A stretch of 64,000 nucleotides of DNA from assembly GCA_040766505.1 (NCBI GenBank), contig JAXGQJ010000004.1:17549-81548 (forward strand). The letters are read 5' to 3'. A model generated the notes under the pieces. The model was not told where the DNA came from and ran no database searches. It was given only the letters and a program-made list of their open reading frames with translations. Made by a program: the position numbers and the translations under genes. This DNA is from Clostridiales bacterium. GTDB taxonomy: Bacteria; Bacillota; Dehalobacteriia; UBA7702. Shown here piece after piece: positions 2,612 through 60,223 of the stretch. Positions within the stretch are counted from its first letter, which is position 1; the number at the start of each line of letters is the position of its first letter.

Positions 2612-4084
2612 TTAGGCAATCCCCAAATCCTTCTCTTCTTTAAGAATCATTTCCCGGATTTCCTTTTGCACATCTTCGGGCAAAGGCGTCGGCTTATGGG
2701 TTTTTAGGATGCGGATGGCCTCCCGGTCGCATTTTTCCACCAGGCTTTGGCTGCCCTCGGCCTGCCAGACATCGATCATATTGCGGTCGATCCATTTCGG
2801 CGTCGATTGGAAATTGCGCACCCGCTTCATCGTATGGGGTTCCGTCAGATAATTGCCGCCGGGGCCGATCTCCTTGATCAAGTCCACGGCCAGGCTTTCA
2901 TCGTCTCCGGGAATGCCCTGTAACACATGGCGCACCATCGCGGCAAATTCATTGTCCATGACCATCTGGCCATAACCCAAGGTAATGCCGAGTTCCAACA
3001 TGCCGAGACCGTAAATCAAATTGGCGCCGGCCAAAGCCGGCAGCAATGCCGTCAATGTCTTTTCATGGCCGGCCTGAATGTCGGCAAGTTTACTGTCCGC
3101 CTAGCCCCCCGCGACGAAACTGGGAATTTGGTAAAATTGGGCCATCCTCGCCACGGCGGCGCTGATCATACCCAGTTCGGGGCAGCCCACGGTGGCGCTG
3201 GCCCGGCGCAAATCGAGAATTGTGGTGGAGCTGCCATAGGTGACGGGATTGCCGGGGTTCACCATCTGGATCAGCACGATATTGGCGAGAATTTCGGCAT
3301 TGTGCACCACCAGTGTCCCCGCCAGGGTGATGGGGGAGGAGCCGCCGGCCATCGCCATCGACAGCGGATTACAGGGCAAACCGACCTTGGCATATTCCAT
3401 CAACATTTCCGTATTGCCCTTTGCCAAGGTCAATGGGCTGACGGGGCAGCCGCCCCCGGAGATGATCGGCCTTTCCTTCAATTTGTCCACACCGCCGACG
3501 ATCGCCGCCGCCATGGCGATGGCGATTTTCGCCTGGTGGGCGTCTTCCGCTCCCTGGCTTTGGTGCTTCGTTGTATTGCTGAGGGTCGCCTCGGCATTGT
3601 GCAGCATCGCCACCTTTTCATGTTTGTCCCGGGCCGTCAGGGTCTGCTCGATCACGTCGATTTGGTCTAAGGCGTCCACCAGCTTCGCCACATCGGCAAT
3701 GTCTTGCTTTGTTGAAGGGCGGCGCTCCTTCGTATCGGGATCCTCTACCATGATCCCTTCGCCAAAAGTAAGGAAGTTGACGCGCCTTCCCTCCAAAACC
3801 ACATCGTTCTTGGGATCCCTCCCGGCCAACAGCACTTTGGGCGGTGCTTTCCGAATCGCGTCTTCTACGACGGAACCGGGGATCCGCACAATTTTTTTGT
3901 CCCAGTCCACCCGGCAGCCGTGCTCTTCATAGACGGCCATCGCCGCTTCACTCTCTACAAAGATGCCGGTATATTCCAGCACGTCCAAGGTATCGAGGTG
4001 GATTTTATACAGCGTGTCTTCGCTCATCACCTGAAGGCTGAAACCCTCATAGGCGCCGCCGCCGGCGGCATAATTTCTCCTCAT
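2612..4084 (-). CDS. mttB: trimethylamine:corrinoid methyltransferase MttB, pyrrolysine-containing (in-frame UAG at 3101..3103)
   Basis: ORFs 3101..4084 (N-part ending ..[14 protein letters not shown]) and 2612..3055 (C-part) are in one frame separated only by TAG; read-through gives ..[39 protein letters not shown].., the MttB Pyl context; MttB-superfamily similarity over full length. Confidence 0.85.
3101..3103 (-). other. in-frame amber codon, predicted pyrrolysine codon of mttB copy 1
   Basis: cta on plus strand = UAG on minus strand at junction of ORFs 3101..4084 and 2612..3055. Confidence 0.8.
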
Positions 4085-4096: not shown

Positions 4097-5515
4097 TTAT
4101 CCTTCAAGGTCTATACGGGCCTTCGCGGCAATTTCGTCCATGGCGGCCACCACATCGGCGGAAAGCGGCTTTGCCTTATGGTTGGCCAAAATCTCGGCCA
4201 ATCTGTCCTGGGCCAAAGCGCGGTAATTCTGGCCGCCGGCAGCGAAAAGGAAGGAATTTTCCGCCTTTTCCATAAAGATTTCCCGGCGGAAATGGCGGAA
4301 GGTATGGTCGTGGCTGAGGAAATTGCCCCGGGGCCCCATTTCGGCGATCACGTCGAGGGCGGCGGTTTCCGCATCCAGGCTGAACTCCCGCAAATAGGCT
4401 TTGCTGTAACGGTAGACTTCGAGATCGAGAACAACGTCGACCAGCGAAGAGCTGAGACAGCTTTCCCGGGTGCCGAACCAACAGCAAACGTCGGGCCGGG
4501 TCATCAGCTTCATCGCCAGTTTATAGACATTGCGTTCGAACCCGGCGACGGTGGAGAAGTCTTTGAATTCCACGGTGCCGCCAACCTCGGAAGGCAGGCC
4601 GTAGAACCGGGCCATATCCACATCGGCGGCGCCCAAAAGCAAATATTCGCTGTTTTCATAGTCGATGCCACCGGTTCGCAAATCCGGCGCGCCGGCATCG
4701 GAAGAATAGAAGAAGCGGGCGTCTTCGGCGGCGCACTTCGCCACCATATAACAGGCCAGCACCTCGCTGTTGACCAATAGGGTGTCGGCGGCGACGGTCG
4801 CCGGGGAAGTGGTGGTCATCTGTGGCAGCGACATCGGGATGATCGGAATGCCGTGGCGGGCGGAAACGGCAATGGCGTCGGCAATGCCCCCTTCCAGCGC
4901 CAGCGGCGTTGTAGGCGCGGAAAGCAAAGACATGATCGGGTTTTTCCGCAGCCGGTCGGTACCGCCGGTGACGGCGGCAGCCAGCTCGATTTGCCATTGG
5001 GCCAGTTTGCCCGAGGCGGAAGAGCACTGTATATGTTTCGTTAAGTTACGAAACGAAATGTCCAGCGCTTTAAACTCCTGGTATTCCCCGTCAAATTCAT
5101 GGGGGAACATCAGCGGCCAAAAGCAGTCCATATCCGCGGAAGCGTCGGCTAAAATACAAAGCTGGGTCAAATCGTTCTCGGTCACATAACGTTTTTTGCC
5201 ACTGTCCTCGTCTTGAATATAGGGAACATAACCGGCTGGGGTTGTGAAGGGATGCCCGCCGGCGGGAAGGGACAGGGTGTGCTTTTCATCCCTCGCCCCC
5301 AACGGGAAAGAGGAAATGGCGAGGCCCAACATTTCCTTCACCATTTCTGCGGGGAACCGCACATTGTCGCCGATGACCTTGGCCCCCTTTTTCGCCAATA
5401 GGCCGCGAACCTCTTCGCTGCCGATATAAACACCGACGGTGGACAAGAGCTCCAATGTCTTTTCGTGGATATATTCCTGCTCTCCTCTACTTAATAATGA
5501 CAATTGTGTACGCAT
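4097..5515 (-). CDS. MttB-superfamily methyltransferase without pyrrolysine (MtgB/MtpB/MtcB-like quaternary-amine:corrinoid methyltransferase candidate)
   Basis: ORF 4097..5689; uninterrupted frame with sense codons at the Pyl column (..FYGLPSEVGGTVEFKDF..); start set to ATG 5513..5515 (MRTQLSLLSRGEQEY) with AAAGGAGA 7 nt upstream; 12-nt gap to mttB. Confidence 0.8.
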   Translation of the reverse strand: MRTQLSLLSRGEQEYIHEKTLELLSTVGVYIGSEEVRGLLAKKGAKVIGDNVRFPAEMVKEMLGLAISSFPLGARDEKHTLSLPAGGHPFTTPAGYVPYIQDEDSGKKRYVTENDLTQLCILADASADMDCFWPLMFPHEFDGEYQEFKALDISFRNLTKHIQCSSASGKLAQWQIELAAAVTGGTDRLRKNPIMSLLSAPTTPLALEGGIADAIAVSARHGIPIIPMSLPQMTTTSPATVAADTLLVNSEVLACYMVAKCAAEDARFFYSSDAGAPDLRTGGIDYENSEYLLLGAADVDMARFYGLPSEVGGTVEFKDFSTVAGFERNVYKLAMKLMTRPDVCCWFGTRESCLSSSLVDVVLDLEVYRYSKAYLREFSLDAETAALDVIAEMGPRGNFLSHDHTFRHFRREIFMEKAENSFLFAAGGQNYRALAQDRLAEILANHKAKPLSADVVAAMDEIAAKARIDLEG

Positions 5516-5560
5516 TTTTGGTCTCCTTTCCTGCGATGGCCACTCGCTTATCCATTCATA

Positions 5561-5577
5561 ATGCAAATCCGATGCCA
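5561..5577 (-). promoter_or_regulatory. sigma-54 (-24/-12) promoter candidate TGGCAT-N5-TTGCAT
   Basis: minus strand 5577->5561 reads TGGCATCGGATTTGCAT with correct GG-N10-GC spacing; about 46 nt upstream of the MttB-family start codon and directly downstream of a sigma-54 activator gene. Confidence 0.55.
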
Positions 5578-5591
5578 TCCCAAGAAAAACG

Positions 5592-5630
5592 ATAAAAAAA
5601 TCCCCTCTCGGATGTTTCAAAAGAGGGAGA
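5592..5630 (-). terminator. rho-independent terminator of the sigma-54 activator gene
   Basis: minus strand CTCCCTCTT-13 nt loop-GAGAGGGGA followed by TTTTTTTAT. Confidence 0.5.
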
Positions 5631-5787
5631 ACAAGCCGGTCTAGGAATTTGTCCTTTCGGACACAGTTTTCAATCGATGGCGGCATCAAAAATACGCCGT
5701 ATTTTTCGGACGGAAAGCAAAAACAGCGGCAAAAACGATACGGTTGCGCTACATATCGGAACAGCAGCGATACAGCAACGAGACACT

Positions 5788-18825: not shown

Positions 18826-19359
18826 CTACTTAATCTCTTCCACTATAATATGGTCATTCGTATAGACGCAGATCGATGCCGCCACCTTCATAGCTTCTCT
18901 GGCGATTTCCACGGCGGTCATCGGGCAGTGGGCCATCATGGCCCTGGCCGCCGCCAAAGCATAGGGGCCGCCGGAACCGATGGCAGCGATGCCGTCGTCG
19001 GGCTCGATGATTTCACCGCTGCCGGAGATGATGAGAAGGTTCTCTTTGTCGGCGACGATCAGCATCGCTTCTAATTTTTGCAAAATCTTATCGGTGCGCC
19101 ATTCCTTCACCAGGGCCACCGCGGCCCGCATCAGATTGCCCCGGTATTCGCCAAGCTTCATTTCAAATTTATCGAACAATGTAAACGCGTCGGCCACGGC
19201 GCCGGCAAAACCCGCCGCCACTTGGTCGTGATAAAGCCGCCGCACCTTTTTGGCGCCGTTTTTCATGACCATCGCATTGCCCATGGTCACCTGGCCGTCC
19301 CCGGCGATGGCGACGGCGCCGTCCTTCTTTACACCGATGATGGTGGTCGCTTCAAACAT
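18826..19359 (-). CDS. hslV: ATP-dependent protease subunit HslV (terminates with UAG)
   Basis: 177 aa; N-terminal [10 protein letters not shown]; stop codon TAG 18826..18828 with in-frame TGA three codons later. Confidence 0.85.
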
Positions 19360-19384
19360 ATTTTTCCTCCTGCCTTCCGCCTCA

Positions 19385-20272
19385 TTATGCCCTTGGATGG
19401 GTGTTTTCAGATCCGTTCAAATGTCCTTTGGTCACATGGGTATAAATTTGCGTGGTGGATAGCCTGGCATGGCCCAAAAGCTCCTGTACCACGCGGATGT
19501 CGGCGCCATTTTCCAAAAGATGGGTGGCATAGGAATGGCGCAAGGTGTGGGGGCTGATGCGCAAATTCGCCGCCAGCCGCAGCACATACCGGTTGAGGAT
19601 GCCCCGAACCCCCCGGCCGGTCAGCCGGTTGCCGTCCCGCTGGTTCAGAAATACCGCTTCGATGCCGTCATACGCGGGGCGTACCAGTTTGGGGCGGCCC
19701 CGTTCCAGATAATTCTTTAAGGCTTCCAGGGCAAAATCCCCCAATGGAACCAGCCGTTCCTTCGAACCTTTACCGAAAACCCGGACGGAATGGAGGCTGA
19801 ATTTGATCTGCCCCAAATCGAGGCCGGTCAATTCCGATACCCGAAGCCCGCCGCCGTAGAGCAGCTCTAAAATGGCCCGATCCCGCAGGCCGCCAGGGCT
19901 TTCATCGGGAAGAGCAAAGATTCCTTTTAGTTCATCATAATGCACAAACTTTGGTAATTTCCGGTGTTCCTTTGGGGTAGATATCATGTCAAGGGGGTTC
20001 TGCGCCACCACATTTTCCCGGCACAGATAGCGGTAGAAGGATCGCAGCGAAGATACCTTCCGAGCCAGCGACGTTTTGCTCAGTCCCCGCCGGCGCAAAT
20101 CCATCATATACTGCCGCACGGCGAGATGGTCAAGATCCGTAGCATGAAGCCCTTTTTTCCCCAAAAAAACAAAAAGCTCCTCCAAATCGCCGCGATAAGC
20201 GGTGACGGTATGGGGAGAAGCGTTTTTTTCCGCCTCTAAATAGGCGATGAAATGTTGCAGATGATCGTCCAT
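19385..20272 (-). CDS. xerC: tyrosine recombinase XerC
   Basis: 295 aa; [36 protein letters not shown] catalytic region; positioned between trmFO and hslV as Bacillus codV. Confidence 0.85.
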
Positions 20273-28854: not shown

Positions 28855-30396
28855 TCAGATCACCTTATCCAAAGCCCGGTATTGCACCGCCTCGGCAATA
28901 TGATGGCCGGCGATTCCCGCCGCCCCCTCCAAATCCGCGATGGTGCGGGCAACCTTCAAAATCCGGTCATGGGCCCTGGCGCTGAGGTGCATCCGATCAA
29001 AAACCCGTTCCAACAGTTGCCGGCCCTTGTCGTCCAATGGGCAAAAGGTTTCCAAAAAGCGGCGATCCAATTGGGCATTGCAATAGATGCCGGCCATATC
29101 CCGATAGCGCCGGGCCTGTAGCGACCTGGCCTCCTCCACCCTTTGGCGGATTTGAACGGAAGGCTCCTCCCGGTTTTTTTCATGCAGATCATGAAAGCGC
29201 ACCCGCCCCACTTCCACATGCAGGTCGATCCGATCCAGCAACGGGCCGGAAAGGCGGCCGAGATAACGGCGGATCTGGCCGGGGCTGCAATGGCACTCCT
29301 TATCGGGATCGCCATAATAACCGCAGGGACATGGATTGCAGGCGCAAACCAGTTGAAAATCGGCGGGGAATCTAACGGCGGCGCTGGCCCTGGCGATGGT
29401 AATGGCCTTCTCTTCCAAAGGCTGACGCAAAACCTGCAAAACATGTTTCGGAAACTCCACGATTTCATCGAGAAAGAGCACGCCATTGGAGGCAAGGCTG
29501 ATCTCACCGGGCCGCGGAAAGCTGCCGCCGCCAATCAGGCTCGGCGCCGTGGCGGTATGATGGGGGGAACGATACGGACGGCGGCGAATGATGCTCTCGC
29601 CGTTCAACTCCCCGGCAAGGCTATAGATACGCGTGGTTTCCAAGGCTTCCTGCCGGGTCAGGGCCGGAAGGATCGTCGGCATACTTTTGGCCAGCATGGT
29701 TTTGCCGGAACCGGGGCCGCCGATCAACAGGATATTGTGGCCCCCGGCGGCGGCGATTTCCATCGCCCGTTTGACCCCTTGCTGGCCACGAATATCGGCC
29801 ATATCAACGGCGCCGTCAAAATCTCCGGGGCCGATCTGAAAATCCGCCTCGGTGACGGGGGCGGGTAAAATTTCCATCTCTTCCATCAGGAAAGCGGCGG
29901 TCTCTTCGATATTGCGAAGCGGGTAAACCGGCACTTTGCCGGTAAGGGCCCCTTCGGCGCCATTTTCCGCCGGCAGGAACACCCTAGCCGCCGGATCCAG
30001 CTTGGAAATACCGTCCACCAATGGAAGGATGCCATTGATCGGTGAAATGCCGCCGTCTAAAGACAATTCGCCAAGAAAATAAGAATGGCTGTCCAAACCC
30101 GAGGGCAGCCGGATCTGTTCCGTAGCCAATAAAAGACCGAGGGCGATGGCAAGGTCAAAGTTGGTGCCGTCCTTTTTTAGATCCGCCGGCGCGAGGTTGA
30201 CGATGATTTTTTTGCCGGGAAAGACGAAGCCGCTGTTTCTCAGCGCCGCCTTCACCCTCTCCTTGCTTTCGCGCACCGCGGCGTCGGGAAGGCCAACCAT
30301 ATCAAAGCTGGGCAGCCCATTGCTGACATCAACCTCAATGGCAATGGCATAGGCTTCCAGCCCGATCAAAGAAATGCTTTTCACGATCGACAGCAT
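28855..30396 (-). CDS. comM: YifB/ComM-family Mg-chelatase-like AAA+ ATPase
   Basis: ORF 28855..30420; Walker A GPGSGKT, C-terminal Mg-chelatase domain; start MLSIVKS at 30396. Confidence 0.85.
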   Translation of the reverse strand: MLSIVKSISLIGLEAYAIAIEVDVSNGLPSFDMVGLPDAAVRESKERVKAALRNSGFVFPGKKIIVNLAPADLKKDGTNFDLAIALGLLLATEQIRLPSGLDSHSYFLGELSLDGGISPINGILPLVDGISKLDPAARVFLPAENGAEGALTGKVPVYPLRNIEETAAFLMEEMEILPAPVTEADFQIGPGDFDGAVDMADIRGQQGVKRAMEIAAAGGHNILLIGGPGSGKTMLAKSMPTILPALTRQEALETTRIYSLAGELNGESIIRRRPYRSPHHTATAPSLIGGGSFPRPGEISLASNGVLFLDEIVEFPKHVLQVLRQPLEEKAITIARASAAVRFPADFQLVCACNPCPCGYYGDPDKECHCSPGQIRRYLGRLSGPLLDRIDLHVEVGRVRFHDLHEKNREEPSVQIRQRVEEARSLQARRYRDMAGIYCNAQLDRRFLETFCPLDDKGRQLLERVFDRMHLSARAHDRILKVARTIADLEGAAGIAGHHIAEAVQYRALDKVI

Positions 30397-30431
30397 TGCG
30401 CGGCGCCCCTTTCCCATCACTACAATATATA

Positions 30432-30459
30432 ATTATATGGGAAAAAAGCCAGTTGTCAA
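30432..30459 (-). promoter_or_regulatory. sigma-70-type promoter TTGACA-N16-TATAAT upstream of comM
   Basis: minus strand TTGACAactggcttttttcccaTATAAT read directly. Confidence 0.5.
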
Positions 30460-30638
30460 CAAAATCCTCCGCCGGCGCCAAAATTCCGGGCGGCCGCCGC
30501 CCCCGCCGCCGGCATAAAAATCAACCCGCCCCAAGGGAAGCGACGCGGCTTTTCCCCCGCTTCGCCCACCTTTTCCTCAAACCGAGGCAGCCGATTCCAT
30601 TCCATCCGCAACGGCCCCGCGGCCGGTTTGATCGCGAT

Positions 30639-30669
30639 AAAAAATGCGTTCCGCTATACGGCGGAACGC
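30639..30669 (-). terminator. rho-independent terminator after mttB copy 2
   Basis: minus strand GCGTTCCGC-CGTATA-GCGGAACGC followed by ATTTTTTAT. Confidence 0.6.
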
Positions 30670-30705
30670 GAAACCAGAAAACCGATGTTGATGTTTGGAG
30701 TGGGA

Positions 30706-32197
30706 TCAAATGTGGTATTCGGAAAGGGGAAGGCGGCATGCGCTTTCCATTTCATTTACGATATCCCGCACCGTTTTGCCAATATGGGGCAAAAGGGGCG
30801 GAACCTGATAATTCCGGTACAAATCCAAGGCCCGTTCATTGGCATTTTGGAGAATGTCCCGTCTGCCCGCCGCCTCCCACTCTTCCGGCATGGTGCGGTC
30901 AATCAAATTTGACTGCGACTGGCTTTCCTTAAAATATTGAAAGGTATGGCTGTGCGGATACGAATTCTCCGCCGGGGCCCACCTCGCGGATGGCGGCCAA
31001 TGCCAAAGATTCCTCATCCACCTCGATGCCTTTCAAAGCGTGAAGAATCATACCGGCGAATTCATTGTCCATAACCAGCTTGGAATAATCGAAGGTAATG
31101 CCCAATCCCAGCATACCCAGGCCATAAATCACATTGGCGCCTGCCAATGCCGCCAACAGCGCCGAGAGGGTGGTCTCATGGCCCGCTTGGGCGTCGGGAA
31201 CTTTGGCATCGGCCTAGCCGCCCGCAACCCAACTGGGCAAATGATAAAATTGGGCAATTTGCGCCACCGAGGCGGAGATCATGCCCAATTCCGGCGCTCC
31301 CACCCCGGCGGTGGTGGTGCGCAGATCCATCATCGTCGTGGAGCTGCCATAAATAAAGGGATTCCCCGGCCGGATGCCCTGGCACAAAACGAGGCCCGCC
31401 AACACCTCGGCATTGTGAACCACCAAGGTGCCGGCGAGGGTCACGGGGCCGGTTCCGCCCGACAGGGCCATGGAAAGCACATTGACGGGGATGCCTGCCA
31501 TCGCGGCTTCCATAATCACTTCCGTCGTATCCGGATTCAAGGAAAGGGGGCTGTTCGGGCAACAGAGAGGGGAATAGATCGGCCGCTTTCTCAGATTCTC
31601 CATCCCTCCTTGGATCGCCGCGGCCATGCGAATGATGGCTTTGGCGTTCTGCCCATTGCCCGCGCCAATAAAGGCATGTTTCGTTGTGTGATGGAAAATG
31701 GCCTCCGCATTGTGAATGCTTTGCACTTCCGGCGGAACTTCATCGGCGCCCAGCGCCCTTTCATAGACGGCGATGTTTTCCATCGCGTCACAGAGGCGCG
31801 TGGCGTCGCCAACGTCTTTTTTTGTAGAATTTTTCGCGGAGCGGCTTACCGGATCCACCACCTTGATTCCTTCGCCAAAATTGGTAAATGTCACCTTTTT
31901 CCCGTAGAGATAGACGTCGTTCTTGGGATTGCGCCCGCAGAGAAGAACAGAGCTCGGCGCCGCCCTGAGGGCGTCCTCCACCATGCTGGGCGTTACATAA
32001 ACGATTTGCCGGGCGGCGTCAAATTCCGCGCCCAGGCCTAAAAAAATGTCTTGCGCCTCCGGAGAAATCACCTTGACGCCGGTGTTCTGCAATATATCCA
32101 GGGTAGCGCCATGCAAGAGATACAGGTCATCTTCGGAGAACAGGTTCAACCCTATGCCGAGTATTTTCTCCTGCCCCGCCAATAAAGCGCGATTCAT
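30706..32197 (-). CDS. mttB: second, divergent pyrrolysine-type MttB-family methyltransferase (in-frame UAG 31214..31216; additional frameshift ca. 30965)
   Basis: ORF 31214..32197 ends ..[11 protein letters not shown], then TAG, then in-frame ..[17 protein letters not shown] (30929..31156); last ~100 codons continue in another frame (30706..31017); about 50% identical to copy 1. Confidence 0.75.
31214..31216 (-). other. in-frame amber codon, predicted pyrrolysine codon of mttB copy 2
   Basis: cta on plus strand; same alignment column (VAGG-O-A) as in copy 1 although flanking nucleotides differ. Confidence 0.75.
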
Positions 32198-32463
32198 TTT
32201 ATCTCCCCCTTCTTTTGGTCATCGTCGCCCTTTTTGCCTTTTGTGTTGTTCTTATTATAGCAGAAATTGAAATCCGTTCCCGCCTACAAAAAGTAAAATG
32301 ATGACTTTACACTTCGTAAGATTCCCCGGCGGGGCAAAAAAACTTAATTTTGGTAAAACGGAAACTAGACAATGTGTAAAATGACATTTTATCAATTCAA
32401 TGCTACGCTTAGGGCAATTGCCATAAAAAACCGTATATAGAGATTTTGGAAGGAGAGAGAAAA

Positions 32464-33954
32464 ATGGGTGAAATCAAAAGGCTTCAATATTTCGCCGGCG
32501 GCCAATGGCACACCTCAAAAAGTGAAACGTATATGACCGTATACAATCCCAGCACCGGCCAGCCGATCGCCGAAACGCCCTGCTGTACCGAGGAGGAGTC
32601 AACCATGCCGTCGCCTGCGCGAAAGAAGCGTTTCCGGGCTGGAGGGACACCCCGGCCATCAAAAGGGCCCAAATCCTCTAAACTACGGGATCTGTTGATG
32701 GAACATTTGGATGAACTCACCTATCTGGTGGCCTGGGAAAATGGCAAAGCCTGGGGCGACGCAAAAGGCGATGTATTGAAGGCGAAGAAGCCGACGGAGG
32801 TCGCCTGCGGCATTCCCAGCCTGATGATGGGCGAATCCAGCATGGACACATCAAAAGGCGTGGATACCGTACTATACCGCGAACCGTTGGGGGTTTTCGC
32901 GGGGATCGTTCCCCTTTAATTTTCCCGCGATGATTCCGATGGGCTGGATGACGCCGTTTGTATCGCCGCCGGCAATACCATCGTTTTAAAAGCCGCCAGC
33001 ATGACGCCGCAAACCGCGATGCGCATCGCCGATTTATACCGCGAAGCCGGCCTGCCCGACGGCGTGCTGAATCTCGTCACCTGCTCCAGGAATGAAGCGA
33101 ATCTGCTGCTTTCCCATCCGGATATCAAGAGCATCAGCTTTGTCGGTTCCACCGCCATCGGCCTTTCCGTCTATTCCCAGGCCGCCGCCGCCGGTAAGCG
33201 GGTGCAGTGCCTCTGTGAGGCGAAGAACCATGCCCTCGTCCTAGACGACGCGCCGATAGAACGAACCGCGGCGGGCATCATCAATTCCTGCTTCGGCTGT
33301 GCCGGAGAACGGTGCATGGCTTTGCCGGTTGTCGTCGCCCAGGAAAGCATTGCCGATCAACTGGTGGCGGCGATCGTTCGCAAGGCGAAAGAGCTAAAGG
33401 TGGGGCCGGCCTATGAAAAAGATACGGAGATGGGCCCCTTGGTCTCCGGCGGCCATAAGGATTTTGTCCTCAAATGGATCGACAAAGGGGAGGCGGAGGG
33501 CGCCGAAATGGTTCTGGACGGTAGGAATTTTAAGGTTCCCGGTTATGAGAACGGTTTTTTCGTCGGCCCCACCGTCGTGGACAAGGTACGGCCCGGCATG
33601 ACCATTGGCGATGAAGAGATCTTTGGGCCGGTGGTCTGCATCAAAAGGGTGAAGGATTTTGAGAGGGGCCTGGCCCTGATGAATGAAAACCAATTCGCCA
33701 ATGGCTCCGTTATTTTCACCCAGAACGGCTATTATGCCAGGGAATTTGCAGGGCGAACCGACGGCGGCATGGTCGGCGTTAATGTCGGCATCCCGGTTCC
33801 CATCGGCATTTTCCCCTTCTCCGGCCACAAACGCTCCTTCTTTGGCGATCTGCATTGTCTCGGAAAGGATGGCATCCGCTTCTATACCGAATCAAAATGC
33901 GTAACCACCCGCTGGTTCGACGAAGAAGAGCTGAAAAAGAAGGTCGATACTTGA
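32464..33954 (+). CDS. mmsA: CoA-acylating malonate/methylmalonate-semialdehyde dehydrogenase (MmsA/IolA type); frameshifted between ca. 32600 and 33000
   Basis: N-terminus MGEIKRLQYFAGGQWHTSKSETYMTVYNPSTGQPIAE after GGAAGGAGAG; ORF 33001..33954 (GERCMA, FPFSGHKRSFFGDLHCLGKDGIRFYT) matches MmsA closely. Confidence 0.75.
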
Positions 33955-34033
33955 GACAGCACCATCTGAGCCGGCCAAAACCTTGGTCGATTCCTCTATG
34001 AAGAGACATCCGAGCAAGCGAAGGAGGATGGTA

Positions 34034-35356
<1,323 letters not shown>

Positions 35357-35731: not shown

Positions 35732-37415
35732 TTAACGGCAAAGCGGCGGCTCCAGCCCGCTCACTTCTTGCACATCCTCATACTTATGGGTCACTTTGAT
35801 CTCCTTTTCTTTGTCTTGGCCAAAGTCCTCTTTCAGCATTCGATTCCCTGAAAGCACAAGGATCACAAAAATCGGAATCAGGAAAATCGCCGCGGCGATG
35901 GAAAGGGTTTGAATTTGCCCCGCCACGCCAAGATAGGTCAGGATCACCGCCAGCACCGCCATGGCGATGGCCCAGGAGAACCGATGCCAACGGGCCGGCT
36001 GCTCTTCCGCCTTTAAATCGCCGGAACAGATGGAAGCGATGGTATAAGCGGAAGAGTCGATGGTGGTGGCCGCGAAGATAAACGCCAGGACGATGTATAG
36101 AATAAGAAAGAAGATAGGAATCGGCAATGTTTGCAAAACCGCGATGATGGTGCCCACATTGCCCAGCTCCGCCATGGCTTCCGTCATCGCCATGGTTCCG
36201 GTCCATTCCAGATACATGCTGTATCCGCCCATGACCGCAAACATGCCACAGGTTCCAAACGTTCCAAACACCAATTCGGCGACGACCAATTGGCGAATGG
36301 TGCGGCCTTTCGATATACGCGCAACAAAAAGGCCCATCATCGGCGCATACGCCAGCCACCAGGCCCAATAAAAGACCGTCCACCATTGCGGGAAACTGGC
36401 GCCATTGTCCAAGACGGAGAATGGATCTGTCCAAAGGCTGATGCGGAAAAAATCCGCCAGCATGAGGCCGATGCTGTTCGTGGTCAGATTAAAAATAAAG
36501 GAAGTATAACCCCTAAACAGGCCGATGACCAAAATCCCGATGGCAAATAGGATCGCCAGATACAGGTTAATATCGCTCAACCGCGATATGCCCTTGTCGA
36601 GGCCGAGGAAAATCGAAGTGCCGAAGATCAGGAACCAGATGCCGATGACCACAAAAACAATCCAGGTCGAATTGCTGAGATCCAGGCCGAAAACACTGCC
36701 GGCCAGGCCGGTAATGGTCGGCACCGCAATGGACAATGTGGTGCCGACGGCGCCGACGATGCCGAAAATAGAAAAGATGTCGATCAGCACGCCGAGCCAA
36801 TTGTCGGCCCATTTCCCCAGCAGCGGTTTGCATGCGGCGCTCAGGCGCAGGATGTTCTTTTTACGCACAAAGATCATATAGGCGATCGGCACCGTTGGAA
36901 TGCAATAGATCGCCCAGGCGCTAAAGCCCCAGTGAAACATCGGATACATATGGGCATATTCAAAAATCAGCGCCTTGGCGGAACCGGTAAGGTTGACGCC
37001 AATCCCGGCGGCGGAATCCACATTATAAAGGGCCGCCAAACCGAGGGCGCGCCATCCAAATAGCTGACGCTTTCATAAAATCCCCAGCTCATAATCCCGC
37101 CGCCGATGCCGGCACAAAACAGCATTGCAACCCAGTTAAACCAGGAATAATCGGGTTTGTCCTCCGGCCCCCCAACTTGACCGTACCGTAGCGCCCCACA
37201 GCCCAATACAGCAACACAAAAAAGCAAAACAGACAGAACAATAAATAGGCCCAGCCCCAAGGAATCGTCGTCCAATTAAACGCCGAGGTGATCATCTTGG
37301 AAGCAATGTCCCGCGACAGAGAAATCGGCAGAAAAATCGCGAGCAGAACGATCACGGCGGGCAGGGTTACCCTTTTATCCACCTTTACATACCGAAACGG
37401 ATCTTCCAATTTCAT
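35732..37415 (-). CDS. BCCT-family (betaine/carnitine/choline) transporter; two frameshifts in N-terminal third
   Basis: ORF 35732..37039 (435 aa, many TM helices) plus 36967..37275 and 37089..37415 (N-terminus MKLEDPFRYVKVDKRVTLPAVIV.., AGIGGGIMSWGFYES). Confidence 0.75.
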
Positions 37416-37639: not shown

Positions 37640-39060
37640 TTATTCTTTTACAACCGAACGGATATAATCCTGCAAAAGGCGGTCGAGTTCGGAATCGAGC
37701 ATGGTTTCCGGCGCCGCCGCCAAGCGCTCTTTATAGAGACGGTGGGCCCGCTCCAACATGTCCCGGCCTTCCATTTTCGCATAGCTGTCATAGGAGGACC
37801 AATCGGAAACCGTCGGCTGCCAATATTCCTTATAGTGTTCAAATGTGCTGGCATGGGCCAAATAACTGCCCTGCCCCACCTCGTCAATCAGATCCAGAGA
37901 CATGGCTTCGTCTCCGATGTCCATACCGGCGGCGATGCGGAAAACGCGTTCCACACATTCCTCGTCGATGATAAACTTTTCAAAAGACATGGTCATAATC
38001 GAATCGAGCACCCCCAAGCATTCATGGATGATATGGGCACCGCCCAGAATGCCCATCATCAAGTTTTGCATCGTTTCCAAAGCGGATTGGGGGTCAACGG
38101 TTTTCGCTTCCGACATTCCCGTCATCATACGGGTCGGCAGATGGTAAAAATGGTGGAAGATATCGAGGGAGGCCAGGTCGATCAGGAACATCTCCGGCGC
38201 CGCCGAGAGGTAGGAAGCGCGCTTCATATAGGTAATAGAGGAACAGGGAGCCGCCACAACCGGGCAGCCGGGCTTTACCAGCTGTACCAAAACCAGACCG
38301 GCGATGATTTCCGCCACCTGGGTCATCACGGTTCCGAACAGGTGCACCGGTGCGGTGGCGCCGCTCATGGCGCAGGGCAACACCATCACCACTTGACCGG
38401 CTTTCGCATAGGTCAGGATCGCTTCGGTGGTATCGGTGCCGAAAGCCAATGGGCTTAACGGATTGGCGGAAACGGCGGTTACGATCCGGTCATCGGAAAT
38501 CTCGTCCAGGCCAAAGGCCAGCGCCGTCATTTTCAACAACTGGCTGCTGTTTGCGCCATTGCTGTTGATGCTGATGATGGCTTTGTCCGTATGCCGCAAT
38601 ACCGCATAGAGCATATGGAGGTGCTTGGTGCTTTGGTCGATGTCATTGGGATTGATGGGATTCGCGCCGACAAGGCCGGTAACGGAACTGCTTTGGTGCA
38701 ATTTCTGCACAGCGGCATAATCCGCCAAAGTGCCGAAACGGCGGGGCCCTTGCCAGTCTTGCATATAAACACAACCGACATTGGGCTCACAAACCTGGTC
38801 CCGGCCCATCAAGATGGTATGGTTCGGATTCCGGGCCTCCCAATAGAATTGGGAGGGCGCCGTCTGCAAGGCACGTTCCGTCATCTCTTTTGGAATATGC
38901 ACCACATTTCCTCAACGCGGGCGCCGTGGGAGCGAAACACCTCCACAGCCTCGGGGCAGTCAAACCGTATACCGGTACGATCCAAAATGGTGAGCACCCC
39001 GCCGTGCACGCGTTCCATATCGTCGCGGTTCAACATCGACAGTCTGGGTTTCCTGATCAT
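37640..39060 (-). CDS. MttB-superfamily methyltransferase without pyrrolysine, copy 2 (one frameshift ca. 38890)
   Basis: ORF 37640..38905 (421 aa) plus N-terminal fragment in 38881..39177 (MIRKPRLSMLNRDDMERVHGGVLTILDRTGIRFD); no stop at the Pyl column. Confidence 0.75.
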
Positions 39061-39082: not shown

Positions 39083-40387
39083 TTAATTGCACGCGCCGTC
39101 CAAGATGGCCAGGTTCTTATCGAGGACGGCCAGCACATCATCGAGTTGATCCTTGGTGATGACCAAAGGAGGGCCAAAATTCATCAGATTGCTATAGGTC
39201 ATGTGATAGACGCCGTCCTTCAGATTGGCGCTTTTGAACGCCGACATAGAGGCATCGTCCATCTTTTCCTTCGTTTCGCGGTTTTTAACAAATTCCAAGC
39301 CGATAAATAGGCCGATCCCTCGCACATCGCCGATGGCGGGATGATGCTCCTGCAGTGCCTGGAGCTTCTCTTTCGCATAGGCGCCAAGGATCACTGAATT
39401 CCTCAATAAACCTTCTTCGCCATAAATCTCCATCACCCTGCAAGCGGTGGCGACACTTAATGTATGTCCGCTATAGGTCAAGCCCGCCGACAGCTTGCGG
39501 TCTTCAAAATAATCGGCGATTTCATCTTTAACCGCCACCGCCCCCAAAGGAGCGTAGCCGCTGGTCATCCCTTTGGCCATTGTCACCATGTCGGGGACGA
39601 TGCCAAAATGTTCAAAGGCGAACATTTTGCCGGTGCGGCCGAAACCCGCCATGACTTCATCGCAAACCAGCAAAATCCCGTACCGGTCGCAAATGGAACG
39701 GATCTTAGGCAGATAGCCTTTCGGCGGCACAATGATGCCGTTGGTTCCGGTGACCGTTTCTAAAAAGACGGCGGCGATGGTGGCGGGGCCTTCATATTGC
39801 ACCACCTCTTCAAAATGCTTGGCGCATTCCAAATGGCAATTTTCCTCCTTTTGGCCGAAAGGGCAACGGTAGCAATAGGGATCGAGAAATTTCACGACGC
39901 CGGGAATCAGAGGCTCCGCGTCAACGCGCCTGGGATCGCCGGTTAAGGCGAGGGCGCCGGCGGTGGCGCCATGGTATGAACGGTAGCGGGACAACAGTTT
40001 GGAGCGGCCCGTATAATAGTGGGCGATCTTGATGGCGTTTTCATTGGCGTCGGCACCGGCATTGGTGAAAAAAACCTTGCCAAACCCTTTCGGTAGAAAA
40101 TCGACGATTTTTTTCGCACATTCCCCTTTTTTGCTATTGCTGAAGCAGGGCGCCGCAAAGGTCAATACATCCGCCTGCTCTTTCAGAGCGGCGATTGCTT
40201 TAGGATGCTGGTGCCCGATATTACAGTTGACCAACTGCGCCGACAGATCGACAAAACGGTTTCCTTCCGCGTCGAAAAAATAGATGCCCTCTCCCCGCTC
40301 CATCGGTATCGGGTAAATCGCGCCCTGCACAGACCAGGAAAACAGATTGTATTTTCTGTTCAGCTTGATGATTTCCTTATTGTCCAT
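39083..40387 (-). CDS. class-III PLP-dependent aminotransferase (omega-amino acid / beta-alanine--pyruvate transaminase type)
   Basis: ORF 39083..40552; start MDNKEIIKLNRKYNLFSW at 40387 after AAAGGAGAGAG; ..VTMAKGMTSGYAPLGAV.. PLP-lysine region. Confidence 0.8.
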   Translation of the reverse strand: MDNKEIIKLNRKYNLFSWSVQGAIYPIPMERGEGIYFFDAEGNRFVDLSAQLVNCNIGHQHPKAIAALKEQADVLTFAAPCFSNSKKGECAKKIVDFLPKGFGKVFFTNAGADANENAIKIAHYYTGRSKLLSRYRSYHGATAGALALTGDPRRVDAEPLIPGVVKFLDPYCYRCPFGQKEENCHLECAKHFEEVVQYEGPATIAAVFLETVTGTNGIIVPPKGYLPKIRSICDRYGILLVCDEVMAGFGRTGKMFAFEHFGIVPDMVTMAKGMTSGYAPLGAVAVKDEIADYFEDRKLSAGLTYSGHTLSVATACRVMEIYGEEGLLRNSVILGAYAKEKLQALQEHHPAIGDVRGIGLFIGLEFVKNRETKEKMDDASMSAFKSANLKDGVYHMTYSNLMNFGPPLVITKDQLDDVLAVLDKNLAILDGACN

Positions 40388-40620
40388 TCTTCTCTCTCCT
40401 TTTGCTCGTTTTTCGATGCCATCGCCGCTGCGGAAAGGGGGGATCAGCCCATGAAGAAACGCCCCTTTTTCGCCTCTTCCGATGAAGAGAATGCGCCGGA
40501 AACGGCGGCGTTCGCCCAACGGCCCCGCGCAGCCGTTTTCCGGCCAAACCAAAGCATCACACCCTGCTTCACTGATTGCAACAAATGGTCTTTCCCCACA
40601 CTGTACCCGTTCCTAGCAGA

Positions 40621-41271
40621 TTATGACCGCAATAGCTCCATGGCTTTCGTGACGCCGTCGGCGGCGTTTTCCGCAAATGCGTCGGCGCCGATCCGTTTGG
40701 CCCAATGCTCCGTTACCGGCGCGCCACCCACAATGGTTTTGAATTTTCCCTTCAGCCCTCTTTCCAGCAACAGGTTTTCCAAATGCTTTTGCTGTATCAT
40801 GGTTGTGGTCAACAGGGAGCTGGTGCCGATAATGTCCACATCATATTCCACGGCCTTTTCCAGGATCGCGGCATTGGAGACATCCCGTCCCAGGTCGATC
40901 ACCTCAAAGCCATTGGCAACCAAAAGTGAGGCTACGATCCCTTTGCCAATGTCGTGAATGTCGCTTTCCACCGTAGCGATCAAAAACTTGCCGGCGCTGC
41001 GTTTTTCCCCGCCGGAAGTTGCCAGAGCTTCATTTAAAACCGTCAAAGCTTCCTTCATTGTTTCCGCCGCCCGCATTAGTTCGGGCAAAAACAGCGTCCC
41101 TTCTTCAAACCGGTCGCCGACTTCCATAATGCCGGGAATGAAACCGTCGTCGATCAGCCGGTTGGGCGCCAGGCCCATTTCCAAACCTTGTTTGGCGATG
41201 TCCACGGCCCCTTCGGCATCCCCTTCCACAATGGCCTGTAAAGCATCGTTTAACAGCGCGTCATTTTTCAT
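40621..41271 (-). CDS. methylamine-family corrinoid (cobalamin-binding) protein, MtbC/MttC-like
   Basis: 216 aa; B12-binding DxHxxG (SDIHDIGKGIV); 30-nt gap to mtbB. Confidence 0.8.
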   Translation of the reverse strand: MKNDALLNDALQAIVEGDAEGAVDIAKQGLEMGLAPNRLIDDGFIPGIMEVGDRFEEGTLFLPELMRAAETMKEALTVLNEALATSGGEKRSAGKFLIATVESDIHDIGKGIVASLLVANGFEVIDLGRDVSNAAILEKAVEYDVDIIGTSSLLTTTMIQQKHLENLLLERGLKGKFKTIVGGAPVTEHWAKRIGADAFAENAADGVTKAMELLRS

Positions 41272-41301
41272 TTCTCCGCCCTCCAAATATTGTGTTTCCG
41301 G

Positions 41302-42690
41302 TCAAAAGGTCATACCGGTTTTTTTTGAAAATTTCTCCACACAGTTGATTTCAATTCCCAATAGTTTTGCAATATTGGCCTTGGCCTCAATGCCCCGGCT
41401 GGCGGCTCCATACCCCATGAATACAGTGGCGATGTCCAGATCCTCCCGGACTTCCCGCATGGCAACTTCATCGGTGAGATCGAGCAAACCAACCCCCAGC
41501 TTTCCGGCGACATATTCCTTCGCTTCATTTAAGCGCATTTTTTTTGCCAGTTGCATCCGTGCCACCAAATCCCCGGCGGTGCGAACCCCCCCCAAGCCGG
41601 AGGCCTGGCTGTGAACGATGGCCATCCCGGAAGGATCGCCATAACCAACCTACAATCCGTCCATTTTGGCGATTTCCGCCATAGCGGTAGAGGCCCGGGA
41701 AACCGCGTCGATGGGCGGCGTGATCTGCATCGGCACGCCGCCAACCCCCATGCCCACATTGGCGTGAACCGGAATCGGCGAAATTTCGCCGCAATATTTA
41801 CACATCGTGACCGACCGTGCCAAGTTCCAGGGAAAACTTTTTTTGGTATTGGTATTGACCACAGCGCCAAAAACGTCGCCGCCGGCCCGGGCTACCATTT
41901 CCGCCTGGCGGTGCGGATACATGCCCGCCAACCTCTCGCCATGGTAGGTAATTTCGCCATGGAAGCCGAGAATAAATTCACCGGCCATGCCGACTTCAAT
42001 TTGGATCTTGGGATATTTCGCTTTTAGATTTTCAACGCCCCGCAACACCGCATAGAATTCCGCATCTCCTCCGGCGGCGGTCGTGTCAAAGTCGATGCCG
42101 TCGGCGCCGGCTTCAAACATCGCGGCGCCAAGCAAGCCGATATCGCCGATCAGCATTTCCGCGGTTTCCATCTGTGCTTCCTGGGCCTCCCGTATCTTAC
42201 CCTTTGGCATCAGCTCCGCCGCGTTTTCAGCGGGGCCGTCGGGCTTCGTATACATGGGCATATTCGGCATTGCGCCGTATAAAAGCGGCAAGGTTGTGCC
42301 CAATAAGGCCTCCGCCGTTATATATTGCTCCTCGGGCAAGATGGTTTTCAACGGCTTGAAGCTATAATGCACATAGGCCATCTCCAATGTGTCGGCCATT
42401 AAAACCCGTTCATAGGTTTGCAGGATCTGCGGCCTTGCGATCGGAAGGCCCAGCCGGGTGAATTTCAGCGGCTGAGAATCATAGGTAAGAACAAGTTCAT
42501 TGCCTCGCTCCACACTGACAAATTTGCGCGCTTCACAAATGATTTCCATCAGTTTTTCAATATCATCACCGGTGAGCGGCGGACATTTGCAATTCTTTAC
42601 AGCCTGGGCCACCCCGCTTTCGATCTCTTCACGAATCTCAGCCCGTGACATCTGCACGAAGGTTCCGTCTCCCATGCGTGTGCGTATCAC
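41302..42690 (-). CDS. mtbB: dimethylamine:corrinoid methyltransferase MtbB, pyrrolysine-containing (in-frame UAG 41650..41652)
   Basis: ORFs 41650..42690 (..[22 protein letters not shown]) and 41302..41625 in one frame separated by TAG: ..[38 protein letters not shown].., matching the archaeal MtbB Pyl context as recalled (..VDGI-O-TIGVGDP..). Confidence 0.8.
41650..41652 (-). other. in-frame amber codon, predicted pyrrolysine codon of mtbB
   Basis: cta on plus strand at junction of ORFs 41650..42690 and 41302..41625. Confidence 0.75.
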
Positions 42691-42816: not shown

Positions 42817-44433
42817 CTATACCGTTAAGTGTCCGTTATTTTTCCCAAACAAATAGGCGTGCAGGGCAAATTCCAAGGCGAACCGTTTTGCCCCACGGTC
42901 AAAGCCTTCGCCGAGGATGTCCTCAATTTTTTGCAATCGAAAATAAAGGGTCTGGCGAACCACAAAAAGTTTTTCCGCCGTCTTTTGCTTGGAGCAGTTG
43001 CATTCAAAAAAGGTCATCAGCGTATGCAGCAGCTCTTTATTCTCGGGCCGTACCAAATCGCCGAGGTGATCCGCAATAAAGTCCGCAAGCAGTTCCCCTT
43101 CCGCCAAACCATAAAGGATGCGGTCGATATACAATTCTTCATAAAAAACGGTTTGCCGATGCTGTTTTTTTACGATCTCCATGGCGATCCAAGCCGTATC
43201 ATAGCTAAGATGCAGGTCTTCACAGCGGTATACCCGCTTTCCGAGAGAAAAATGGGCCTTTGAATAGTCGATATAGGGGTTTTGCCGATCCCGCAAGGTT
43301 TCCACCAGGCCGTTTACATGGGCCCAAACCTCTTTCCCCGGGGCGGGGGCCAATAGGATATAGATAAACGTATTGTTCTCCATATAACTTAAAAGGCAAA
43401 GGCCCGCGTCCTCAAAGGTTTTGCGCACAATCGCATTGGTATGCAGCAAAAAATCCTCGTTGAAGCGAAACGCATCCATCGGGGTGTTTCTGTCGCAGCG
43501 GAGAATATCCACCAGAAAGACTTGCGCCCCGATCTTGCCATATTGCAGGCCCATATGCCGCAAATGGGTCAGCACATCCCGTTCCCGTAGTTTTCCTTCC
43601 AGCCAATCCCTAAGCCAGCCGTAATTTTTGCGCAAGGCCTCTTCCTTCACGAGCATTTCCTTCATAATATCATGCTCCAATTTATCGGCCAGGCGATCCA
43701 AAATGAGCATTTCAAATTGGGTAAGGTCGCGTTCATTGCTATGGAAGGCCAAAATTCCATAGGGCTTTCCCACCACTTTTAACATCTTCGCCAAAAAGTT
43801 CTCTTTGGAAAAAATGCGATCCTCTTTAATGTCGTCCCGATACTGGTGCACCCACCTTTCCAAAACCGTGGCCATGGTGGGATCGGAATGATACGGTTTA
43901 TTGTGATAAGGCAGATAGGCGATATTGAGTTTTAAATATCTCGCGGTATAGGCCACGCTTTCGTCGATGCTCTGATTTTCCGCCAAAAATTTCAATTGGT
44001 GCTCATAGTAGTCCACATGCTGAAAGATTTTGCTGCTGCTGCTGATGATCCGGGTATTGATTTCCCGGGTGATGTCGATAAAGCGCACGGCTTTGGAAAA
44101 AATAATCAGTGGAAAATCGTGTTCTTTCGCGAGATCGATCATGGCCTGGGGGATCACTTTGTAATAATAAAACGCTTCGATACAAAGGGCCGAAACATTG
44201 CGGGCGATCAATTGCCGCAAAAATTCAACGGCAATTTCCGTGTTCTCAAAGCCAATTCCGGTGGTAAGAACAAGTTCATCGCCGTTGACATATTCCGTAA
44301 TATCGTCTCGAATTTCTAAAATGTGTACCCAACTCACTTTACGGCCCAGGTTTTTTGAGCCGACCAAAACGAGAGCGACATCTTGTAAGCCGGGCATTTC
44401 CAGAACATCTCTCAATGTCACACCAAAATCCAT
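42817..44433 (-). CDS. PucR-family transcriptional regulator (terminates with UAG)
   Basis: ORF 42817..44457; C-terminal PucR HTH ..TAEKLFVVRQTLYFRLQKIEDILG..; start MDFGVTLRDVLEM after GAAGGAGGT; TAG stop with in-frame TAA four codons later. Confidence 0.8.
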   Translation of the reverse strand: MDFGVTLRDVLEMPGLQDVALVLVGSKNLGRKVSWVHILEIRDDITEYVNGDELVLTTGIGFENTEIAVEFLRQLIARNVSALCIEAFYYYKVIPQAMIDLAKEHDFPLIIFSKAVRFIDITREINTRIISSSSKIFQHVDYYEHQLKFLAENQSIDESVAYTARYLKLNIAYLPYHNKPYHSDPTMATVLERWVHQYRDDIKEDRIFSKENFLAKMLKVVGKPYGILAFHSNERDLTQFEMLILDRLADKLEHDIMKEMLVKEEALRKNYGWLRDWLEGKLRERDVLTHLRHMGLQYGKIGAQVFLVDILRCDRNTPMDAFRFNEDFLLHTNAIVRKTFEDAGLCLLSYMENNTFIYILLAPAPGKEVWAHVNGLVETLRDRQNPYIDYSKAHFSLGKRVYRCEDLHLSYDTAWIAMEIVKKQHRQTVFYEELYIDRILYGLAEGELLADFIADHLGDLVRPENKELLHTLMTFFECNCSKQKTAEKLFVVRQTLYFRLQKIEDILGEGFDRGAKRFALEFALHAYLFGKNNGHLTV

Positions 44434-44570
44434 GTGAACCTCCTTCACTCTTTTCACAATGAAGACGCAAATGAGATGCTTTCCATCCTTAATTTTATTA
44501 TAAAGATCGGGCCATGGTTGTCAATAAAATACCGAAACATTCCGCCGCCGTTCGAAAAGCAACGGAAGGC

Positions 44571-58734: not shown

Positions 58735-59380
58735 TAAAATGGAAATAAGGTTTTCTTATATTAAGCGGAAGGTGGCCCGGTGCGGTGGGCAGGGGCCATA
58801 TTTTCGCACTGCTTCGCGATGAGGCAAAGTGATAGCCTTTATGCCGATCAAAACCATACGCAGGGTATCTTTGGTGATAATGGTGCATCAGTCTATCCCT
58901 ATGACATTTGGCGAGGATGCTGGCGGCCGCGATCGATGCGGAAGCAGTGTCCCCCCGATGATTGTTTTCTGTTCCAATTGACTGCCGATGGTGAAAGTAC
59001 CGTCGATGAGCAAAAAATCCGGCGCTTGGCGAAGATTGCGCACCGCCCAGCTCCATGGCGAGTTTCGTGGCTTCCAAAATATTGACGCGTTCGATCACCC
59101 GGGCGGAAACCGCACCAATAGACCAGGCCAAAGCCTTTTCTTTGATTTCCGTCTCCAAGCGGAGGCGCCGCTTTGCCGTCAGCTTCTTGGAATCGTTCAA
59201 ACCCGGAATCCAACCCCGGGGCAAAATGACGGCAGCGGCTACAACGGGACCGGCCAATGGGCCCCGGCCCTGCTCGTCCAAACCGGCAGGAGATCTCTTC
59301 CTGGCCGAAAGAGCTGCTCTTCATAGCGGTACATATCCGGTGCTGCCGACTTCGCCCCCATGGGTTCCCTCCTATCGCGG
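58735..59380 (-). pseudogene. rnhB: ribonuclease HII; frame broken
   Basis: ..GRGPLAGPVVAAAVIL..LNDSKKLT.. and ..SIAAASILAK..YPAYGF..HKGY.. within ORF 58316..59281; first ~30 codons in another frame. Confidence 0.65.
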
Positions 59381-60223
59381 CGGTTTTTCCAAGCAAATCT
59401 TCCCTAAAACGCCCGAACGGAATTCCTTCAAAAGGAGAATATAGGCGTCCCGTTCGCGGATTTTACCGCCGCCGCTTAAAAGCCCGCGCCTTTTGCCGAT
59501 TTCCGCCAATAGATCCTCGCTATGTTCCGGCAATGTCTCGATCTGGTAGCGGTTTTTAAAAACCCCCGGCTTATTCTGGCGCAGCCAATTTAACAGATAC
59601 CAACCGCTTTGCTCTTCGCCATAAGCGTCTTTGCTGATGGAACCCACCACCGCCAATTTAATGGCGGCATCCTGGTCCTCCAGCCTCGGCCAGAGCAGGC
59701 CCGGCGAATCGAGGATTTCCCAATTTTCTCCGGAACGAACCCATTGCAAAGCCCTGGTCAAGCCCGGGCGATCGCCGGTTTTTACTTTGCGCTGGCCAAT
59801 AAGGGCGTTCAAAACCGCGCTTTTGCCGCTATTGGGAATGCCGGCAACCACCAGCCGCAGCGGCCGCGGCCGCCGCCCCCTGGCCGCCATCTCTTCGTTG
59901 AGGATCTCGGCCTTTTCCGCCAGCAGCGCCTTCAAATCCCTTAACCCATTTTTTTCGATGGCGGAAACAAAAAGCGCCGTTTCGCCCCGGTTCCGATACC
60001 AATCCAGCCAAGCCTTCGCATCGGCTTTTTCCACCAGATCCGCTTTATTTAAGATCAGAACCGAAGGTTTTTTGCCCAACAGCGCGCCCAGCTCCGGATT
60101 TCTGGAAGCTATCGGCAGGCGGGCATCCGCCGTCTCGATCACGAGATCCGCAATGGCAATCTGTTCTTTCAGGCCTTTTCGCGCCTTGGCCATATGGCCG
60201 GGATACCAATTTACAACCGTCAT
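59372..60223 (-). CDS. rbgA: ribosome biogenesis GTPase A (YlqF/RbgA); terminates with UAG
   Basis: 283 aa intact; circularly permuted GTPase motifs (..ILNKADL.. before ..GIPNSGKS..); TAG 59372..59374. Confidence 0.85.
   Translation of the reverse strand: MTVVNWYPGHMAKARKGLKEQIAIADLVIETADARLPIASRNPELGALLGKKPSVLILNKADLVEKADAKAWLDWYRNRGETALFVSAIEKNGLRDLKALLAEKAEILNEEMAARGRRPRPLRLVVAGIPNSGKSAVLNALIGQRKVKTGDRPGLTRALQWVRSGENWEILDSPGLLWPRLEDQDAAIKLAVVGSISKDAYGEEQSGWYLLNWLRQNKPGVFKNRYQIETLPEHSEDLLAEIGKRRGLLSGGGKIRERDAYILLLKEFRSGVLGKICLEKPPR

Follow-up and report, generated by a model that had tools for sequence, protein, structure and literature searches.

The second pyrrolysine (Pyl)-type mttB gene (copy 2) of the 64,000-nucleotide stretch analysed here, which we call the window, is with a probability of about 80% a functional gene for a Pyl-dependent trimethylamine (TMA):corrinoid methyltransferase. 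In this reading copy 2 is an old paralog of the other Pyl-type mttB in the window (copy 1; 2612-4084, minus strand), and the break in its reading frame is one spurious base in an indel-rich draft assembly. The first-pass annotation of this DNA had already recognized a second genuine Pyl-type mttB here, an identification that holds on its TAG at the Pyl column and its score on the family model TIGR02369, and its description of the sequence was correct in nearly all details. The features of the gene and its flanks are as follows.

30706..32197, minus strand: mttB copy 2, Pyl-type trimethylamine:corrinoid methyltransferase gene, with matches to Pfam MTTB, TIGR02369 and PDB 7XCL
31214..31216, minus strand: in-frame TAG, codon 328, predicted to be read as pyrrolysine; aligns with X334 of Methanosarcina barkeri MttB
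31117..31216, minus strand: mttB-type pyrrolysine insertion sequence, match to Rfam RF02510 PYLIS_3 with 74.6 bits (gathering score 38)
30955..30957, minus strand: one additional base, within tatCCGcac, that causes the frameshift; the only gap in a 1.49-kb DNA alignment with the closest ortholog, L001
30637..30669, minus strand: intrinsic-terminator-like hairpin and T-run, 37 nt past the TGA stop
32198..32463, no strand assigned: 266-nt divergent intergenic region between mttB and an aldehyde dehydrogenase gene, with a ribosome-binding site (RBS) and an extended -10 box for mttB

Copy 2 is encoded on the minus strand from an ATG at 32197 to a TGA at 30706-30708. The TAG at 31214-31216 is preceded by 327 sense codons and followed in the same frame by 94 codons up to a TAA at 30929-30931, after which a third piece, in another frame, runs to the terminal TGA. 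The first two pieces match the Pfam family MTTB (PF06253, length 500) over profile positions 31-337 (E 3e-53) and 341-428 (E 6e-22), and the third matches positions 427-494 (E 8e-9). These matches are far beyond chance and, being consecutive, they assign all three pieces to a single gene that contains an in-frame TAG and is broken once in its frame. After deletion of the extra base the gene comprises 496 codons, and its product scores 658.7 bits on the NCBIfam equivalog TIGR02369 (trimeth_pyl; cut-off 525), spanning profile positions 2-469 of 469. Copy 1 scores 699.8 bits against the same cut-off, and the two non-Pyl MttB paralogs of the window, at 4097-5689 and 37640-38905, fall below it at approximately 258 bits. 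With its TAG and its score above the cut-off, copy 2 therefore stands outside the non-Pyl, MtgB-like part of the MttB superfamily. MtgB of Desulfitobacterium hafniense (PDB 2QNE, 9YCE) shares the Pfam family and the TIM-barrel fold with copy 2, but MtgB-type non-Pyl members act on quaternary amines and have an ordinary amino acid codon at the Pyl column. Identity to copy 2 is approximately 29-30% for the two non-Pyl paralogs of the window.

The structurally solved MttB of M. barkeri (PDB 7XCL, 7XCM, 7XCN; PMC9842639) is matched end to end by the repaired copy 2 product (phmmer against 7XCL, E 2e-119), which is of similar length and has its UAG at the Pyl334 column. In the phmmer alignment, X328 of copy 2 pairs with pyrrolysine X334, and G108, M243 and Y358 are the equivalents of Gly110, Met249 and Tyr364, the residues that position or activate Pyl334 in the archaeal enzyme (Li et al. 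2023, PMC9842639). The two proteins differ in that copy 2 is only 45% identical and has a bacterial host, and in that the cis-peptide Thr111 of M. barkeri MttB is replaced by Glu109 in copy 2, as it is in the 15 bacterial sequences aligned. The methyl group removed by copy 2 would presumably pass to tetrahydrofolate rather than to coenzyme M.

The TAG of copy 2 lies at codon 328, the same codon as in copy 1, just as the first reading of the sequence had it, and the column is conserved widely. Scanning one genome per species yielded 80 loci from other genomes, 79 of which have TAG at this column. Between 158 and 175 uninterrupted in-frame codons follow the TAG in 78 of these 79, the contig of the remaining one (L061) ending 65 codons past it, and the sole exception among the 80 is a locus (L080) with TGG. 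The PYLIS_3 match in copy 2 covers model positions 1-100 of 100 from the TAG onwards, and an equally full-length match begins at the TAG of copy 1 (3004-3103). We read the match in copy 2 as a sign of regional conservation, the existence of a function for the PYLIS element being under debate. An Rfam E-value scan of 30300-32700, intergenic region included, returned PYLIS_3 alone and no other structured RNA.

A capacity of the host to decode UAG as pyrrolysine is inferred here from the three TAG-carrying methyltransferase genes of the window, namely the two mttB copies and a dimethylamine methyltransferase gene, mtbB, in all of which the frame downstream of the TAG is intact (in copy 2 after repair); a search of the 64 kb revealed neither pylTSBCD genes nor a tRNA. 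TAG also serves as the ordinary stop codon of some well-supported genes in the window, among them those for a PucR regulator (42817-44457, minus strand), HslV (hslV; 18829-19416, minus strand) and a ylqF-like GTPase (59372-60223, minus strand), so that UAG is ambiguous in this host, as in other Pyl-using bacteria.

A separate observation concerns MttB proteins that are 45-53% identical to copy 2, where the usual figure for the non-Pyl superfamily is approximately 28%, and in which the Pyl column is nonetheless occupied by a sense codon. The residue is Trp (VAGGWGDSK) in L080 (10982-10984), P0008, P0009 and P0017, Ala in P0004, Val in P0063 and Gly in P0065. Because L080 is nested among deltaproteobacterial Pyl-type sequences in our tree, this distribution suggests that Pyl may have been replaced repeatedly among these sense-codon relatives.

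The frame break itself is a matter of one base. The ortholog L001 (GCA_040766525.1, JAXGQI010000002.1) is 81% identical to copy 2 at the amino acid level and has TAG at the same codon; its frame is intact over 1491 nt, in contrast to that of copy 2, which is one base longer. Aligned as DNA, the two genes are 74% identical with one gap, where the window has an additional base in gtatCCGcacagc. Removing the G or one C at 30955-30957 leaves a gene of 1491 nt, exactly the length in L001, whose product across the break matches the VSHEHTY/VSNMHTF of the orthologs. As assembled, the last 82 codons of copy 2 are out of frame, and an uninterrupted frame to the normal C-terminus exists only after the one-base removal; the repaired frame has no premature stop, leaving one lesion in 1.49 kb. 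The frameshift placed near 30965 by the first-pass annotation is thus real in the given sequence, although its site is 30955-30957, outside the GGCCCCGGCGGAGAATTCG quoted for it, and the C-terminal part is indeed out of frame, if by 82 codons rather than the approximately 100 residues proposed.

Relative to L001, dN/dS of copy 2 is 0.06 for codons 1-327, 0.06 for codons 329-414 and 0.10 for codons 415-496, which follow the break, although dS is saturated at this distance and the ratios thus rule out an old inactivation only, not a very recent one. We also considered relaxed selection after the break, given that the C-terminal part of copy 2 is only 61% identical to its ortholog, and rejected it, since the C-terminal part is the least conserved in all ortholog pairs. 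A search for an independent assembly of the same organism gave no match to the exact pattern across the break site, and the best match in a protein scan of metagenome contigs was only 61% identical.

What decides how the break should be read is the indel background of the assembly. Gap lists from DNA alignments with L001, from which the indel counts derive because tblastn with L001 proteins merged frames poorly, contain approximately 15 frame-disrupting indels in 5.8 kb: one in mttB, four in the aldehyde dehydrogenase gene, eight in the glutamate dehydrogenase gene (gdh) and two in a BCCT-family transporter gene (at about 37046 and 37177). All eight in gdh, which lies approximately 2 kb from mttB, are deletions of 1-2 nt, several of them beside short homopolymers, and deletions near copy 2 outnumber insertions by approximately 12 to 2-3. 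The same pattern extends to essential genes. The AA_kinase profile is matched by pyrH over positions 1-110 and 112-202 in two different frames, tsf matches positions 1-47 of 204 only, and ispG, proS and hslU are fragmented across all three frames. Genes split over two or three frames in the window also include rpsB, the dxr region and nuo genes.

A Viterbi model of codon usage, trained on long open reading frames, counts 74 same-strand frame switches in the 64 kb, a rough figure of which approximately 15-20 are judged to be true gene junctions. The switches cluster at 7.7-18.3, 27.5-28.8, 32.4-37.4, 44.5-45.7, 49-50, 53.5-56.5 and 60.5-63.5 kb and leave regions such as 18.8-27.4 kb and 37.6-44.5 kb unaffected. 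Copy 1, mtbB and a number of long genes are likewise free of errors, so that the error load is patchy. A free-living organism cannot lose the genes of the rpsB operon, proS or ispG, and the indels in those genes must therefore be errors. Against such a background one more indel in mttB is expected from the error rate alone, and a break that is one of very many, some of them in essential genes, has no weight as evidence for a pseudogene. Judged by this background rate, the extra base at 30955-30957 is most likely an assembly error. By the same token, pseudogene or frame-break calls anywhere in the window need to be discounted, as it contains dozens of single-base indels.

Copies 1 and 2 are clearly distinct genes. 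Their products are 50.0% identical over 484 amino acids, in agreement with the approximately 50% first estimated. The additional statement that the nucleotides around the two TAG codons differ completely was too strong, as 85 of 123 are identical within 60 nt on either side, but the two copies are not an assembly duplicate: the first 984 nt are 56% identical with a longest common word of 14 nt, which marks two genes. In a neighbour-joining tree, copy 2 groups with L001, L002 (an uncultured bacterium), L003 (Peptococcaceae HRGM_4028), L004 (Peptococcaceae UBA7702) and L006 (Candidatus Cryptoclostridium obscurum), and copy 1 forms a separate deep branch. The 50% identity and the separate branches exclude copy 2 as a recent duplicate of copy 1. 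Judged from these comparisons, the duplication that gave rise to the two copies is old, and the clade of copy 2 is conserved in Peptococcaceae-like Bacillota.

Multiple Pyl-type mttB loci per genome are familiar from related bacteria. Our scan recovered four in DCMF and two each in Peptococcaceae UBA7702, Syntrophaceticus schinkii and a Dehalobacterium MAG, and several divergent Pyl-mttB paralogs per genome have already been described in Peptococcaceae (Holland et al. 2019, PMC6778437). The DCMF genome ('Candidatus Formimonas warabiya') holds 82 mttB-family genes, and Pyl occurs in 23 of its 96 methylamine methyltransferases (PMC6778437). As in the window, DCMF and other Peptococcaceae have several divergent TAG-containing mttB genes per genome beside BCCT, corrinoid protein and mtbB genes (PMC6778437). 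The four DCMF loci, recovered at 52-55% identity, belong to a different clade from copy 2 and, unlike copy 2, they are free of frame breaks in a finished and curated genome.

The gene has its own expression signals, in line with what the first-pass annotation had listed. An RBS (AGGGGGAG) lies at 32203-32210, and a terminator-like hairpin at 30669-30646, with a 9-bp stem containing seven G-C pairs and a 6-nt loop, is followed by the T-rich tail ATTTTTTATC. The 266-nt divergent region between mttB and the aldehyde dehydrogenase start at 32464 is likewise as reported. A scan for the sigma-70 consensus upstream of mttB found no promoter; an extended -10 box, TGcTATAAT, is present at 32254-32262 on the mttB side and is kept as TGyTATAAT in L001 together with an upstream block, TCTTACGAArTGTAAAG. 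We infer from this conservation that the box is the probable mttB promoter. A perfect sigma-70 consensus (TTGACA, 16 nt, TATAAT; 12/12) occurs at 30432-30459 (minus strand), directly upstream of a comM/yifB-like gene of the Mg-chelatase family (28855-30420).

Divergent from copy 2 are genes for an MmsA-like aldehyde dehydrogenase (32464-33966, plus strand) and a glutamate dehydrogenase (34034-35356, plus strand). L001 shares this neighbourhood, including the BCCT gene; its aldehyde dehydrogenase gene has a single break of its own at L001:6511. The pair is found in the window and L001 only and is absent from L002, L003, L004 and L006, the clade members checked. At L001:79-2086, a non-Pyl mttB paralog is broken up, with a DUF772 (transposase-family) gene just downstream of the fragments, a pattern suggestive of genuine decay within this relative's methylamine region.

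Beyond the divergent pair, the minus strand carries the following set of genes.

~35768..37250, minus strand: BCCT-family transporter, frame-broken, nearest candidate permease (Pfam BCCT, E 6e-96)
37640-38905, minus strand: non-Pyl MttB paralog (MttB superfamily)
39083-40552, minus strand: class-III aminotransferase
40621..41286, minus strand: corrinoid protein of MtbC/MttC type, candidate methyl acceptor (Pfam B12-binding and B12-binding_2)
41305..42690, minus strand: Pyl-type dimethylamine methyltransferase gene mtbB with its TAG at 41647-41649 (Pfam Dimeth_Pyl, E 3e-135)
42817-44457, minus strand: PucR-type regulator

The mtbB gene, which brings the TAG-containing methyltransferase genes of the window to three, has a single TAG in its translation and a PYLIS_2 match in Rfam (58.2 bits at 41553-41652), and it lies directly upstream of the corrinoid protein gene, whose product scores 211 bits on the NCBIfam model pyl_corrinoid, just below the cut-off of 215.3. 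Copy 2 had been described as standing alone, without a corrinoid protein or permease gene next to it. The description fits its immediate neighbours only, as the BCCT, corrinoid and mtbB genes all follow on its own strand at a distance of 3.5-10 kb, with the aldehyde dehydrogenase-gdh pair alone, on the other strand, between mttB and the island genes. The orthologs of copy 2 sit directly beside such genes. L002 has the order BCCT-corrinoid-mtbB-mttB on one strand, the corrinoid gene being approximately 1.5 kb upstream of mttB with mtbB between them, L004 has BCCT genes on both sides of mttB, and the L006 neighbourhood includes a PucR regulator as well as a BCCT gene. Copy 2 is thus not an isolated gene; it forms the end of a methylamine island of approximately 14 kb.

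The two non-Pyl MttB paralogs, both on the minus strand, are 27-30% identical to the Pyl copies. That at 4097-5689 is directly upstream of copy 1, and that at 37640-38905 lies between the BCCT and class-III aminotransferase genes. The latter lacks its N-terminus (profile 1-76), probably through another indel, and its orthologs adjoin Pyl-mttB in Formimonas and Dehalobacterium loci (L029, L057, L064).

These observations bear unequally on the ways in which copy 2 could be understood. If the break were genuine, copy 2 would be a very recently inactivated pseudogene, redundant with copy 1, and as assembled it would encode a protein without most of the dimerisation loop and without the C-terminal helices. 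The only available sequence shows the break, which falls in the region equivalent to the dimerisation loop 396-452 of M. barkeri MttB, a loop that stabilises the MttB-MttC pair (PMC9842639), so that the enzyme would be inactivated. Copy 1 gives the organism another Pyl-mttB, decay is apparent nearby in L001, where a non-Pyl mttB seems to be interrupted beside the DUF772 gene, and, where most nearby indels are deletions, this one is an insertion that lies in a CC dinucleotide at most. We nevertheless regard such an inactivation as unlikely, given a single lesion in an otherwise open 1.49-kb frame, a dN/dS of approximately 0.1 after it and like lesions in essential genes across the window as well as the eight in gdh. 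The earlier suggestion of a decaying copy is accordingly not supported, as indels are common throughout the window and constraint persists past the break. A programmed ribosomal frameshift regulating MttB synthesis would account for the seamless homology where one frame passes into the other; we reject it as wholly improbable, since it occurs in no relative examined, in genomes or metagenomes alike. The frame is contiguous in L001 and in all 78 other relatives in which it can be traced to the end, 80 metagenome relatives are contiguous too, and tatccgcac contains no slippery heptamer.

An intact copy 2 might also be specialised for a methylated amine other than that of copy 1. The old paralogy, with 50% identity and separate clades, would agree with such a divergence, as would the two to four Pyl-mttB loci of other Peptococcaceae-like genomes and the control region that copy 2 has in common with the aldehyde dehydrogenase-glutamate dehydrogenase pair in this lineage. 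Both copies, however, score above the TIGR02369 cut-off and retain the residues in contact with pyrrolysine (copy 2 has the equivalents of Gly110, Met249, Pyl334 and Tyr364), and the dehydrogenase neighbourhood is confined to the window and L001 within the clade. The proposal of different substrates in the first-pass annotation is thus not supported, and we consider a specialised copy 2 even less likely than a genuine inactivation. We are not aware of any Pyl-MttB that acts on a compound other than TMA. It is similarly doubtful that the whole clade of copy 2 (the window, L001, L002, L003, L004 and L006) is tuned to a non-TMA amine, with co-regulation of mttB and the aldehyde dehydrogenase-gdh pair here, or else that the break records the ongoing loss of a redundant Pyl gene; were the former true, the clade would be the first of Pyl-MttB with a non-TMA substrate.

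We therefore favour copy 2 as a functional, Pyl-dependent TMA methyltransferase gene with one spurious base in its assembled sequence. Its UAG codon 328 would be decoded as pyrrolysine, and TMA would add to the pyrroline ring of Pyl328, from which the methyl group would be transferred to the Co(I) corrinoid bound by a second protein. For this role the MtbC/MttC-type protein of the methylamine island, whose gene lies at a distance of 8-10 kb, is the likeliest candidate, and the dimethylamine produced may be handled by the Pyl-type mtbB of the same island. Both this partner and TMA as the substrate are probable assignments. Read in this way, the organism joins the bacteria whose genomes encode a Pyl-type mtbB together with two or more Pyl-type mttB genes, and copy 2 raises no new question but fits the known picture of methylamine-using Peptococcaceae-like anaerobes.
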